A stretch of 32,141 nucleotides of DNA from an uncultured Candidatus Saccharibacteria bacterium (GTDB lineage Bacteria > Patescibacteriota > Minisyncoccia > UBA6257 > UBA9933), in the NCBI GenBank assembly GCA_964362515.1, contig CAYIEP010000002.1, forward strand, positions 1 to 32,141, read 5' to 3'. Of the stretch, positions 14,404-23,766 are shown in pieces (positions within the stretch are counted from its first letter, which is position 1; each line of letters begins with the position of its first letter). The position numbers and the translations under genes were made by a program. The notes below the pieces were generated by a model that made no database searches, had not been told where the DNA came from, and saw only the letters and a list, made by a program, of their open reading frames with translations.

Positions 14404-14736
14404 TCAAATCATTTTAATTTCCACATCGACTCCGGCCGGCAAATTAAGACTTGAAAGCGCTTCAATTATTTTTTGACTGGGATTTAAAATATCAATAAGA
14501 CGCTTATGGATTCTTAACTCAAATTGCTCTCTGGAATCCTTATGAACAAAAGTTGAACGATTAACCGTGTATTTCTTGAATTCCGAAGGCAAAGGAACCG
14601 GACCGATAATTTCTCCGCCGTTTCTTACGGCGGTTTCAATTATCTGCTTGGCGGAATTATCTATCAGCTTATGGTCGTAAGATTTTATTTTCAGCCTTAA
14701 TTTATTTTGTAAATTTTCTTCCTTCTTCTTGGCCAC
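14404..14736 (-). CDS. rpsJ: 30S ribosomal protein S10
   Basis: KLRLKIKSYDHKLIDNSAKQIIETA ... GPVPLP ... FVHKDSREQFELRIHKRLIDI. Confidence 0.96.
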   Translation of the reverse strand: MAKKKEENLQNKLRLKIKSYDHKLIDNSAKQIIETAVRNGGEIIGPVPLPSEFKKYTVNRSTFVHKDSREQFELRIHKRLIDILNPSQKIIEALSSLNLPAGVDVEIKMI

Positions 14737-14749
14737 GCTTAATATTTAT

Positions 14750-15949
14750 TTAATTTATAATTTTAGTAACAACTCCGGCGCCAACCGTTTTGCCTCCTTC
14801 TCTGATGGCAAATCTTTGTTTTTCTTCAAGAGCGACCGGGGCAATTAGTTTAATCACAATATTAACGGTGTCTCCGGGCATAACCATTTCAATCCCTGAA
14901 GGTAAAATTACTTCTCCGGTGACATCGGTTGTTCTCATATAGAACTGCGGTTTATATCCCTTACAGAATGGGGTATGACGTCCGCCTTCTTCTTTGTTAA
15001 GAACATAAACTTCCGCCTCAAATTCCGCGTGAGGAGTAATGCTCCCCGGCTTCGCGAGAACTTGGCCTCTTTCAACGTCTTCTTTTTTAAGACTTCTTAA
15101 AAGTATCCCCACATTGTCTCCGGCGCGGCCTTCATCAAGAATCTTATTAAACATTTCAATTCCCGTAACAATAGTTTTCTGGGTCGGTTTTATTCCGATT
15201 ATTTCCAATTCTTCATTAACTTTAACGATTCCTCTTTCCGCTCTTCCGGTAACAACGGTTCCTCTTCCTTCTATTGAGAAAATGTCTTCTACCGGCATCA
15301 AAAACGGCTTATCTATTTCTCTTACCGGCTCGGGAATATATTCATCCAAAGCCTTAATAAGCTCCAAAATCGGCTTAATAGCTTCGTCATCGACTGATTT
15401 CGCCTCTAAAGCTTTAAGGGCGGAACCTTTTATTATCGGGATTTCATCTCCCGGAAAATTATATTTTTTCAAAAGTTCCCTTATTTCCGCTTCAACCAAA
15501 CTAACGAGTTCCGGATCATCGACTTGGTCAACTTTATTTATAAAAACCACGACCGCCGGAACGCCAACTTGTCTAGCCAAAAGAATATGTTCTCTGGTTT
15601 GGGGCATCGGGCCATCAGTCGCGGCAACAACTAAAATAGCGCCGTCCATTTGCGCCGCTCCGGTAATCATATTTTTGATATAATCGGCGTGGCCAGGAGC
15701 GTCAATATGAGCGTAATGCCTTTTTTCCGATTGATATTCGGAATGATGAAGCGCGATGGTAATGCCTCTGGCTTTTTCTTCCGGAGCATTATCAATATCG
15801 TCAACCTTTTCGGCTTTTTCAATAAGCCCCTTTAATTTAAGAACATTCATTATCGCCGCGGTAAGGGTTGTCTTGCCATGGTCAACGTGGCCGATTGTTC
15901 CAACGTTGATGTGCGGTTTAGTTCTTTCAAATTTTGCTTTTTCCGCCAT
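14750..15949 (-). CDS. tuf: elongation factor Tu
   Basis: [31 protein letters not shown], and a full-length match by eye to EF-Tu (399 aa). Confidence 0.98.
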
Positions 15950-15996
15950 AATAATTTTAATTTAATTACTGCTATTATATTTATCGACTCTTAAAA

Positions 15997-16023
15997 TTTA
16001 TATCATTCAATAATTATTGTCAA
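15997..16023 (-). promoter_or_regulatory. Candidate promoter upstream of tuf
   Basis: Minus sense TTGACA (16023-16018), then either a 15-nt spacer with TGA-TATAAA or a 17-nt spacer with TAAATT. AT-rich context, so a chance match is possible. Confidence 0.3.
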
Positions 16024-16041
16024 TATTCGCGTTTCTTAAAC

Positions 16042-16392
16042 TCAAACCAGCTCCACTATAGACATTCTCGCTCCGTCATTTTTTCTTCTTTTAACTCCTT
16101 TGATTATTCTTAAATATCCGCCATTTCTGTCTTTGTATCTTTTCGCGATATCGTAAAAAAGTTTCTCTGCCGACTTCTTGCTTATCCTGCTTATTATTAC
16201 TCTATGCGAAGCTAGATTCTGTTTTTTGGCCAACGTTATTAATTTCTCAACTTTCGGTCTTAATTCTTTCGCTTTTGCTTCCGTTGTTTCAATTCTTTCT
16301 TTTAAAATAATATTATTAACCAATCCCTTGAAAAGAGCTGTTCTTTGGCCTTTTTCTCTGTGAAATTTTCTTCCTTTGTTTAAGTGCCTCAT
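16042..16392 (-). CDS. rplQ: 50S ribosomal protein L17
   Basis: MRHLNKGRKFHREKGQRTALFKGL ... ETTEAKAKELRP ... YLRI. Confidence 0.95.
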   Translation of the reverse strand: MRHLNKGRKFHREKGQRTALFKGLVNNIILKERIETTEAKAKELRPKVEKLITLAKKQNLASHRVIISRISKKSAEKLFYDIAKRYKDRNGGYLRIIKGVKRRKNDGARMSIVELV

Positions 16393-16394
16393 TT

Positions 16395-17096
16395 TTACTC
16401 TTTTATTTTGATGTCTGAAATTTTGCTGAAATGGTCAATTAAAACATTACAGGCTTTATGCAGGGCGCTTGACGGAGAAATACTTCCGTCTGTTTCTATA
16501 AAAAACTTTAATCTATTGTAGTCCGTTCTATCCCCCACGCGCATATTTTCAACGGAAAAATTAACCTTAACGATAGGAGTAAAAATAGCGTCTATGGCAA
16601 TCGTTTTAATCGGCAATTTTTCCATTTTTCTCGCTTCCACCGGAATATAACCAAGGCCCTTCTCAACGGTAATTTCCATTTCCAATTCAGAACTTTTTGA
16701 AGTTAATGTCGCTATATGGGCATCTTCGTTAATTATCTGAACTTGGTCGTTTGTCTTAATGTTTGAAGCTATTATCTTTTTCTCTCCTTTTGCTTTTAAG
16801 ATAAATACTTGAGGCTCTTCCGCGAAAAATTTAAATCTTATTCTCTTAAGATTAAGGGTTATTTCCATGACGTCTTCTTTTATTCCGGGAATTGTGGAGA
16901 ATTCGTGGTCAACGCCTTTTATTTTTATTTGAGTAACGGCCGCTCCGGGAAGAGAAGAAAATAAAACCCTGCGCAAAGCGTTCCCTGCGGTTAAACCGTA
17001 TCCGGCGTAAAGACCCTCCACCTCAAAAACTCCCTCTTTATCGGTTTCAGAAATTTTCTTTATTTTTACCGTTTCGCTTAATCTTGCGTATTCCAT
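16395..17096 (-). CDS. rpoA: DNA-directed RNA polymerase alpha subunit, N-terminal domain only (233 aa)
   Basis: GNALRRVLFSSLPGAAVTQIKIKGVDHEFSTIPGIKEDVMEITLNLK are alpha-NTD motifs. The ORF stops at residue 233 and rplQ starts 2 nt later. No linker or CTD sequence is present. Confidence 0.93.
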   Translation of the reverse strand: MEYARLSETVKIKKISETDKEGVFEVEGLYAGYGLTAGNALRRVLFSSLPGAAVTQIKIKGVDHEFSTIPGIKEDVMEITLNLKRIRFKFFAEEPQVFILKAKGEKKIIASNIKTNDQVQIINEDAHIATLTSKSSELEMEITVEKGLGYIPVEARKMEKLPIKTIAIDAIFTPIVKVNFSVENMRVGDRTDYNRLKFFIETDGSISPSSALHKACNVLIDHFSKISDIKIKE

Positions 17097-17713
17097 TATT
17101 TACTATAATAATCAACAACTAAATTAATATCAAATAAAATTTCTTCCGTCGTCGGCAAAGATTTCAGACGGCCCTCAAATTTATCTCTGTCAATTTCCAG
17201 CCAATGAGGGGAATTATGTTTCTTCATGGTAATCGGCAAATCATTAAAAATCAAGATGCCTTTTGATAAAGGATTTATGGAAATTATATCGCCAACCTTA
17301 ACAAGGTAAGAAGAAATTGTCATTTTCTTTCCGTTAACAAATATATGGCCGTGGCTGATTAATTGTCTTGCCACAACCCTTGAAGAAGAAAGCCCCGTTT
17401 TGAAAACAAAATTAGAAAGCCTCCTTTCAAGATTGGCTATTATGGTTTCTCCGATATTTCCCGTTCCCCTTTCAATGGCGGATTTAACCATTTTTTCAAG
17501 ATGAGCCTCGGTTAATCCGTAAGTGGCCTTTATTTTTTGTTTTTCCAGAAGCTGTTGGCTATATTCGGAAACGGTTCTTTTAAATCTTTTACCGTGCATT
17601 CCTGGACGATAAGGCCTTCTTATCATGACGCATTTGGGACCGCTACAACGCTCCCCTTTTAAAAAAAGTTTAACGCCTAAAGATCTTTCTCTTTTTTCTT
17701 TTATTCTTAACAT
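17096..17713 (-). CDS. rpsD: 30S ribosomal protein S4
   Basis: YRPGMHGKRFKRTVSEYSQQLLEKQK, S4-domain RRLSNFVFKTGLSSSRVVARQLISHGHIFVNGKK. TAATG overlap with rpoA. Confidence 0.96.
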   Translation of the reverse strand: MLRIKEKRERSLGVKLFLKGERCSGPKCVMIRRPYRPGMHGKRFKRTVSEYSQQLLEKQKIKATYGLTEAHLEKMVKSAIERGTGNIGETIIANLERRLSNFVFKTGLSSSRVVARQLISHGHIFVNGKKMTISSYLVKVGDIISINPLSKGILIFNDLPITMKKHNSPHWLEIDRDKFEGRLKSLPTTEEILFDINLVVDYYSK

Positions 17714-17718
17714 AAATA

Positions 17719-18180
17719 TTATACTCGCCTTACTTTGGGAGGCTTGGGACCGTTATGGGGAATCGGCGTCACGTCTTTTATGGAAAGTATATTAAATCCG
17801 TGACCGGCTAAAGACCTTACGGCCGAGTCCCTGCCGCTTCCCACTCCCTTAATCACCACATCAACATTAACCGAGCCTATTTTTTTAAGTTTTTCGGTTA
17901 TCGCGGCCGATACTTTTGAAGCCGCGAAGGGTGTTGCTTTTTTGGGACCGGAAAATCCCAATGCCCCGGCCGAAGACCAAGCTAAAATATTTCCATTCTT
18001 ATCGGCCGCGGCCATTATAGTATTATTATACGTCGCATTGATATAAATTTTTATATTGTCTATTTTAACCGTTTTTAACGAAGAGTCGCCCTTGGAAACT
18101 TTACTTATCGCGCTTTCCGATTTAGCGGTTTCTTTTAATATTTCTTCTTCGCTTTTTTTAATAACTTTTTTCTTCCCCAT
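17719..18180 (-). CDS. rpsK: 30S ribosomal protein S11 with an N-terminal extension of about 25 aa
   Basis: IYINATYNNTIMAAADKNGN ... GPKKATPFAA ... VVIKGVGSGRDSAVRSL ... DVTPIPHNGPKPPKVRR. Confidence 0.95.
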   Translation of the reverse strand: MGKKKVIKKSEEEILKETAKSESAISKVSKGDSSLKTVKIDNIKIYINATYNNTIMAAADKNGNILAWSSAGALGFSGPKKATPFAASKVSAAITEKLKKIGSVNVDVVIKGVGSGRDSAVRSLAGHGFNILSIKDVTPIPHNGPKPPKVRRV

Positions 18181-18188
18181 AAATTTAT

Positions 18189-18572
18189 TTATTTAAGTTC
18201 TGTTTTTCTTCTTCCGCTGCCGACTGTTTTCCTTACATTCCCTCTTACGGTTCTTGAATTGGTTTTTGTCCTTTGCCCTCTTACCGGAAGCCTTTTCGCG
18301 TGCCTTATTCCTTTATAGCTCTGGATTTCTTTCAGTCTATTTATATTCTGCCTGACGACTTGGCGGAGCTCCCCTTCAATCTTAAAGTTTTTTTCTATCG
18401 CCTCTTTTATTTTATTAACTTCTTCCGGCAATAAATCTTTCGCCTTTTTATTTAAATCTATTCCGGCGATTCCCAATATTTTTGCCGAAGAATAACGGCC
18501 TATTCCGTAAACATAAGTGAGCGCGATTTCAATCCGCTTATTATCGGGTATGTTTATTCCTATTAATCTCAT
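18189..18572 (-). CDS. rpsM: 30S ribosomal protein S13
   Basis: MRLIGINIPDNKRIEIALTYVYGIG ... YKGIRHAKRLPVRGQRTKTNSRT. Confidence 0.96.
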   Translation of the reverse strand: MRLIGINIPDNKRIEIALTYVYGIGRYSSAKILGIAGIDLNKKAKDLLPEEVNKIKEAIEKNFKIEGELRQVVRQNINRLKEIQSYKGIRHAKRLPVRGQRTKTNSRTVRGNVRKTVGSGRRKTELK

Positions 18573-18575
18573 TTT

Positions 18576-18692
18576 TTATCCCTGTCTTTGTTTATGTTTC
18601 GGACTTTTATCGCAAATAATGTAAATCCGTCCGTGTCTTTTAACGGTTTTGCAATTTTGACATATTTTCTTCACAGATGCTCTTACTTTCAT
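18576..18692 (-). CDS. rpmJ: 50S ribosomal protein L36 (38 aa; below the ORF-track length cutoff)
   Basis: Hand translation of the minus strand gives [38 protein letters not shown] then stop. ATGA overlap with the infA stop. rpsM starts 3 nt downstream. Confidence 0.92.
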
Positions 18693-18904
18693 AATCTTCT
18701 TGTTATTCTTCCTCTTTTTTTATCCGGACTAAGCTCAAGCAAAACCCTGTCCCCCGGCAAAACTCTTATGTGATTCATTCTCATTTTGCCGGCAAGATAA
18801 GCGATTATCTCATTATCATCGCCGAGTTTCACCTTGAAGGTGGCGGCCGGTAAGGCCTCCATAACGATTCCTTCAACGGGTTTCTCTTTTTTATTATCGG
18901 GCAT
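18689..18904 (-). CDS. infA: translation initiation factor IF-1
   Basis: [60 protein letters not shown] (S1-like fold signature). Confidence 0.95.
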
Positions 18905-22497: not shown

Positions 22498-23766
22498 TTA
22501 GTATTCCCTTAATTGCTTTGCCTTATCGTGCTTTTTCATTTTTTCCAAAGCCTTGGCTTCTATTTGACGGATTCTTTCTCTTGTCACTCCGAATTTATTT
22601 CCCACCTCTTCAAGAGTATGAGTGATTCCGTCCCCTAGACCGAATCTAAGTCTTAAAATTTCCTGTTCTCTGGGAACCAAATCAACTAAAATTTCTTTTA
22701 TTTTATTTTTTAAAAGCGCTTGAGCCGCCATTTGAGAAGGCGTCAAGCTTTTTTCGTCTTTTATGAATTCCGAAAGACTAGTCTCTTCATCGCTGTCTCC
22801 GACCGGCGCTTCCAATGAAATAACTTCTTGAGATATTTTTTGGAGATATCTTATCTTATCAACGGTTGTTCCAATCTCTATCGCTATTTCTTCGGCTAAC
22901 GGCTCTCTCCCTAATTCCTGTAAAAGCTTTCTTTTCATTTGGGTATATTTGGAAATTGTTTCTATCATATGAACCGGAATCCTGATGATTCTCGATTGAT
23001 CGGCTAAGGCCCTTGTAATGGCCTGTCTTATCCACCAAGTGGCGTAAGTTGAAAATTTAAATCCTCTTCTATAATCAAATTTATCAACCGCCCTTGAAAG
23101 ACCGATGTTCCCTTCCTGAATTAGGTCCAAAATATTTAAATGAGGACTGCGATATGCGTATCTTTTTGCTATTGAAACGACAAGTCTTAAGTTTGCCGTA
23201 ATAATTTTATGTCTAGATTTTTCGTCGCCTTTTTCCGCTTTTTTCGCCAAATATTTTTCTTCATCTCCCGTTAAAAGAGAAACCTTGCCTATTTCTTTAA
23301 GATACATTTGGACCGCGTCCGGCAATCCAAGGCCTTTTATTTCTGTCGCTTCTTTTAATTCTTCTTCTGATACCTCAATTTTATCCGGCGAATCAACCAA
23401 TTGGGCCGTTTCAATAATTTTTACCTTGGCGGCGTTTAATTGGCCGTGAATATATTCAAGAAAAGGCGTGTCTTCCTCCGCTTTCGGAAAATAAGAGAAA
23501 ATCTCCAAATCCGTCACATACCCTCTATCCTTGGCGGAACTTATAAGTTCGCCCATAACGCTTTCTTTTTTTTCTTTTTTCGGTTTTTTAACGATCGGCG
23601 AAGCGGATTTTTTTATCACAGAGGCTTTTTTCTTTTTGAGCTTTTTCTTTTTTTTCTTAACAAGCTTTTTTATTTTCCTCTTTTTCTTAATAAGCTTTTT
23701 TGTCTTCTTCTTTTTTTTATGGCGCTTAGCCGCAATATTTTTCTTCTTTTTTCTTTTTTGTTTCAT
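22498..23766 (-). CDS. rpoD: RNA polymerase sigma factor (sigma70/RpoD family) with a poly-lysine N-terminal region
   Basis: Regions 1.2-4.2 recognisable ([69 protein letters not shown]). The first 70 residues are almost all K/R. Confidence 0.93.

Follow-up and report, generated by a model that had tools for sequence, protein, structure and literature searches.

Does the RNA polymerase of this bacterium work without the C-terminal domain of its alpha subunit, and if so, has anything taken that domain's place? The alpha C-terminal domain (alpha-CTD) is a textbook part of bacterial transcription: it reads UP elements, and CRP-type and many other activators dock on it. The question is raised by an rpoA gene in the window, by which we mean the whole 32,141-nucleotide stretch of DNA analyzed here, contig C2 of a 466,959-bp genome that is assembled in 47 contigs and rated 99.3% complete. 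This rpoA encodes an alpha subunit of 233 amino acids (aa), and lies among its neighbors as follows:

16395..17096, minus strand: rpoA, 233-aa alpha subunit consisting of the N-terminal domain (NTD) only, without linker, tail or alpha-CTD (Pfam, TIGR02027 and structure alignment)
16042..16392, minus strand: rplQ, ribosomal protein L17 (PF01196, E 1.1e-31, full-length profile)
17096..17713, minus strand: rpsD, ribosomal protein S4 (PF00163 and PF01479)
14750..15949, minus strand: tuf, EF-Tu, the next gene past rplQ, 92 nt downstream of it

The protein contains the two domains that make up a bacterial alpha NTD. The RpoA insert domain, which contacts beta and beta', occupies residues 57-173 and matches its entire profile (PF01000, positions 1-119; E 3.4e-31, 108.4 bits against a cut-off of 33.9), and the Rpb3/RpoA dimerization domain spans residues 31-223 (PF01193; E 5.8e-21, 74.4 bits against a cut-off of 24), while a Pfam search of the 233 residues found no alpha-CTD (PF03118). 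The GNALRR assembly motif is present. The best match in the PDB is 8i23_A (E 3.9e-59), and residues 10-229 align with residues 14-234 of the 329-aa E. coli alpha subunit (chain 10ma_G). The classical boundary of the E. coli NTD falls at about residue 235, and since the alignment reaches residue 234, the window alpha ends at the NTD/linker boundary to within a few residues. It passes the TIGR02027 equivalog model (238.5 bits, cut-off 227.8) with a match that covers only positions 2-212 of the 298 in the profile, and the PRK05182 sub-models score below their cut-offs. The preliminary description had read the ORF as a dimerization and assembly domain that stops where the linker would begin, and both Pfam and the structure alignment agree. 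Full-length alignment to solved alpha-NTDs suggests that the protein would form alpha2 dimers and nucleate the polymerase core. An AlphaFold2 model was not used: its mean pLDDT was 50.6, because the underlying alignment (32 sequences of 71-78% identity) was too shallow.

Compared with canonical RpoA, as represented by the E. coli protein and TIGR02027, the window alpha thus shares an NTD built of PF01193 and PF01000, the GNALRR motif and the rpsD-rpoA-rplQ gene order, whereas it lacks both the inter-domain linker and the helix-hairpin-helix alpha-CTD of about 80 aa (PF03118). In being a two-domain platform (RNA_pol_L plus insert) with no DNA-binding appendage, it resembles archaeal subunit D and eukaryotic Rpb3, and it gives a weak match to the subunit D model PRK00783. 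Its affinities are nonetheless clearly bacterial (matches to alphas of bacteria have E values from 1e-40 to 1e-59), and in contrast to the archaeal D/L heterodimer it is predicted to be a homodimer.

The locus itself leaves no room for a missing domain. The ORF runs from an ATG start, which overlaps the rpsD stop codon in the sequence TAATG, to a TAA stop, and the rplQ start follows after 2 nt (...AAA GAG TAA AA ATG AGG...), so that there is no space for a linker or a CTD in any frame. The product of rplQ begins directly past the rpoA stop with its conserved N-terminus, MRHLNKGRKFHR, and the position of tuf, 92 nt past rplQ, excludes by context a CTD ORF further downstream. The earlier argument that the nearness of rplQ rules out a CTD hidden by a frameshift is thus borne out by the junction sequence. 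The operon position of the gene (rpsK-rpsD-rpoA-rplQ), conserved in bacteria, is kept in the window. At window positions 14404-18904, tuf-rpsJ comes directly after the alpha-operon block (infA...rpsM-rpsK-rpsD-rpoA-rplQ), an order that is repeated in three of four other assemblies that carry the gene.

These four assemblies also bear on whether the stop codon is real. It could in principle be an error of sequencing or assembly, or a recent pseudogenizing mutation in a gene whose true product is longer, given that the window sequence comes from a single metagenome-assembled genome and that its alpha is the shortest in the family, with those of relatives running 13-61 aa further. However, an identical 233-aa protein is encoded in ERZ1292627, ERZ1292643, ERR3858113 and ERR3858114, two of them ENA assemblies (0.1-um groundwater replicates from Hainich H51) and two Logan assemblies (ERR3858113 and ERR3858114). 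All four repeat the 2-nt gap between rpoA and rplQ, and three have rpsD directly upstream. With MRHLNKGRKFHR of rplQ directly past the stop, nothing is left from which an extension could be made, and alphas of similar length exist elsewhere: a database search returned another 233-aa alpha (P0023, 75% identical) and several with tails of 8-9 aa. We therefore give next to no credence to a longer alpha at this locus, and the four other assemblies all but rule out an artefactual stop. In the fourth of them (ERZ1292643, a 1583-bp contig with a coverage of 2.7), a 101-aa Sigma70_r2 fragment rather than rpsD abuts the rpoA start, and this contig is probably a chimeric assembly.

A CTD might still be encoded elsewhere in the genome. 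In a six-frame search of the whole 466,959-bp assembly, PF03118 had no match even at E<=10, while all 14 control genomes matched. In addition, six CTDs taken from close relatives were made into a custom profile, and a search with it (hmmsearch --max) of every stop-to-stop frame of 25 aa or more likewise yielded nothing credible in the six-frame translation of the genome. The best match to the custom profile (C3:14895-15446; E 0.0096, domain E 0.93) is an NMD3-family ORF, and was hence rejected as an alpha-CTD. With both profiles negative, the genome contains no recognizable CTD, fused or stand-alone. The preliminary description had named a profile search of the full bin as the check for a split gene, and its reading as a true loss holds: both profiles come back empty across the genome, and the NTD-only form recurs throughout the family, in each of the 35 genomes where rpoA was detected.

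Stand-alone alpha-CTD proteins do occur in a few relatives. One genome (G001) encodes a 387-aa fusion of Sigma70_r4 with an alpha-CTD (C1:388920-389090), and its rpoA is NTD-only; another (G025, contig C27) has a 211-aa protein with two tandem alpha-CTDs adjoining smpB, and no rpoA was detected in that genome; a third (G044) carries, on the 2.7-kb contig C84, a 109-aa protein with a single CTD, and its rpoA is NTD-only. In a fourth genome, from the same order (G042, C1:1440-2409, minus strand), an in-frame TGA interrupts rpoA after ...AQHFA, precisely where the NTD meets the linker, and past it the same frame continues with a GTG codon and an intact linker and alpha-CTD (88 aa). This gene could be a split gene, a case of stop-codon readthrough or a snapshot of CTD loss. 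Weaker PF03118 matches in other relatives, in frames of 560-740 aa and covering profile positions of about 33-66, were judged from frame length only to be generic helix-hairpin-helix motifs of DNA-repair-type proteins.

These cases lend some weight to a split alpha, in which the window organism's CTD persists as a separate protein, either encoded in a region missing from the assembly or diverged beyond what the profiles recognize: relatives possess stand-alone CTDs, the G042 gene places a stop followed by a GTG codon between NTD and CTD, and a small CTD gene could sit in a gap between the 47 contigs. Set against this are the lack of any PF03118 match at E<=10 in a 99.3%-complete genome, the equally empty search with the clade-specific profile, and the finding that, when 35 other genomes of the family were searched, 33 proved to contain no CTD that passes the Pfam cut-off. 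Moreover, the stand-alone CTD proteins are sporadic and of differing architecture, so that they resemble accessory factors rather than the detached end of a subunit. On this evidence we regard a split alpha as quite improbable, and favor a true loss of the domain.

Comparison with relatives shows how widely this loss extends. Among 61 relatives examined, all 35 family genomes with a detectable rpoA encode an NTD-only alpha, in open frames of only 250-280 aa with 62-76% identity and no internal stops. Across the family and most genomes of the order, the frames span 232-280 aa at 45-76% identity, again without internal stops, which points to purifying selection on the NTD-only alpha. Five genomes of the order keep a CTD at the rpoA locus, in proteins of 312-350 aa, and these full-length alphas are restricted to a few divergent families (G049, G054, G055 and G057). 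CTD loss is therefore a trait of the whole family and most of the order. At higher ranks, 301 genomes each were sampled from the class Paceibacteria and from the phylum Patescibacteria, and PF03118 is missing from 83 (28%) of the former and 37 (12%) of the latter. A survey of rpoA lengths across the CPR had been suggested as a further check; rpoA frame lengths show the NTD-only form in the family and most of the order, and PF03118 is missing from part of the class and phylum.

In a maximum-likelihood tree of 139 alpha-NTDs, which is a single-gene tree and weakly resolved, the window alpha falls inside a clade of 58 members that all lack the CTD (SH-aLRT 94); G055 and G057, which have the CTD, belong to the sister group of this clade. 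Another 25 alphas, of Yanofskybacteria, form a second clade without the CTD (SH-aLRT 95) elsewhere in the tree. Well-supported branches force at least two state changes, and hence at least two independent losses; parsimony counts 11 changes, a figure that we do not take as the number of losses, since the single-gene tree is too weakly resolved and only two are forced. Taken with the searches above, this makes it very likely that the window gene encodes a genuine, functional NTD-only alpha, and that the alpha-CTD was lost in an ancestor of the family and most of the order.

The CTD-less alphas of other Patescibacteria have in common with the window alpha the loss itself, membership of the same or sister clades and the operon context, yet they differ from it at their C-termini. 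The loci we fetched include 103 CTD-less alphas, of which 100 extend 13-61 aa (median 21) past the NTD, in a tail that is acidic or neutral at first and then has a lysine-rich run, which mostly lies at the very end, as in KELPAEIAPKAKEPKEKTEKPKKEKKTAKKK. Five or more lysines or arginines occupy the last ten residues in 88 of the 103, as against 10 of 355 ORFs of at least 150 aa in the window genome (2.8%). Two of the CTD-less alphas (L104 and L141) end in KKKRGRPKK, with an AT-hook-like RGRP core instead of plain poly-lysine. The three exceptions to the tail are one genome with a non-basic tail of 8 aa, G042, and the window. Where the alphas of its relatives keep a K-rich tail of 13-61 aa or an RGRP core, the window alpha ends at the last NTD helix: its tail is 0 aa long, and the lysine/arginine-rich end is absent. 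It is the most reduced state among the CTD-less alphas that we compared.

What these tails do can be suggested from their composition, in that a lysine-rich run could tether upstream DNA electrostatically. They are found in 100 of 103 CTD-less alphas and in separate clades, yet are short or missing in some, so that the tail is common but not obligatory. Because its length varies down to 0-9 aa, the tail may instead be dispensable, or a mere remnant of the linker.

With the CTD lost, its DNA contact might have been taken over by another part of the polymerase. Only two sigma-70-family genes were found in the genome, one at C9:12921-13124 and that of the primary sigma factor in the window, and no other subunit is recognizable as a reader of promoters:

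22498..23766, minus strand: rpoD, primary sigma factor, 422 aa, with about 70 lysine/arginine-rich N-terminal residues

One could thus imagine a compensated swap, in which this N-terminus of sigma-70 took over the DNA contact of the CTD; it contains 41 lysines or arginines in its first 70 residues, and stands where the normally acidic region 1.1 would be. The distribution of the feature argues against such a swap. A lysine/arginine-rich sigma N-terminus is present in 14 CTD-containing Paceibacteria (in a fifteenth, no sigma ORF was found) as well as in most of 14 CTD-less ones, and therefore does not co-vary with CTD loss. We find a swap hardly credible; at most, the basic N-terminus pre-dated the loss of the CTD and permitted it. 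More generally, the primary sigma factors of the sampled Paceibacteria (the window's and L147-L175) carry a lysine/arginine-rich N-terminal extension of 60-200 residues in place of acidic region 1.1, and the poly-lysine N-terminus, present class-wide regardless of the CTD, was ruled out as a correlate of its loss.

The remaining small subunit, omega (rpoZ, PF01192), was not found in the window genome at E<=1, while all 14 controls matched. Tails occur in at least two Paceibacteria clades that became CTD-less separately, and the window genome has no CTD, no tail and no detectable omega. Together these observations allow a broader reading, which we put forward tentatively and consider possible though rather doubtful: K-rich and AT-hook-like tails would be a convergent, minimal substitute for the contact that the CTD makes with upstream DNA, and the window organism would represent a natural 'null', whose RNA polymerase, of composition alpha(NTD)2-beta-beta'-sigma, would be the most reduced one known outside intracellular endosymbionts. 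Were this reading true, contact between alpha and DNA would be dispensable for a bacterial cell.

The behavior to be expected of the window polymerase can be modeled on truncated alpha of E. coli. Alpha(1-235) constructs (Igarashi and Ishihama; Hayward et al. 1991; Ross et al. 1993, cited in PMC8321222) support core assembly and basal transcription, with no response to UP elements and no class I activation (PMC8321222). Their end point is almost identical to that of the window alpha, which makes them a model for its behavior; they are, however, laboratory constructs, whereas the window alpha is the natural and conserved state of a whole lineage, whose function we infer by analogy. We propose that the host is a Wolfebacteria-family, ultra-small groundwater bacterium (Paceibacteria/Parcubacteria, Patescibacteria) that inherited its alpha from an ancestor, shared by the family and most of the order, in which the CTD was lost. 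By analogy with alpha(1-235), the NTD dimer would be enough to nucleate assembly of the alpha2-beta-beta' core and to sustain a basal level of transcription directed by sigma, while recognition of UP elements and class I activation through the alpha-CTD would be impossible. Having neither CTD nor tail, the window alpha probably makes no DNA contact at all. The absence of an alpha-CTD would leave promoter choice to the two sigma factors.

Natural loss of the alpha-CTD has been described before, in Hodgkinia, Tremblaya and Euglena chloroplasts, to which one sentence adds Parcubacteria (PMC8321222). Like the window alpha, those of Hodgkinia, Tremblaya and Euglena chloroplasts keep the assembly domain and belong to reduced genomes. 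In contrast to those of Hodgkinia and Tremblaya, the NTD of the window alpha shows no erosion, being fully intact and well conserved, and the lineage to which this alpha belongs is no intracellular symbiont but a large radiation of environmental bacteria. For Parcubacteria the sentence cites PMC4508563 (Nelson and Stegen 2015), and the accessible portion of that article mentions neither RNA polymerase nor rpoA nor alpha, which suggests that the distribution of the loss in Parcubacteria had not been documented. Our literature search found no systematic treatment of it beyond the one line in PMC8321222. Alpha-CTD loss in Parcubacteria is thus already known from that line, and the window alpha is an extreme, tail-less example of it rather than a new kind; the lysine-rich tails of CTD-less alphas and the tail-less alpha of the window are newly described here.

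The tail-less alpha of the window offers a natural control for the role of the lysine-rich tails of its relatives, and the polymerase to which it belongs is a compact candidate for structural studies and reconstitution. A published survey reports the notable absence from the CPR of full CRP/FNR-type regulators, those that combine a DNA-binding with a ligand-binding domain (PMC12531629), which is consistent with a CTD-less polymerase that relies on sigma. Classical activators are nearly absent from these bacteria, in keeping with loss of the alpha-CTD, and a large environmental lineage that lacks the domain shows that promoter recognition by sigma only is viable in nature.
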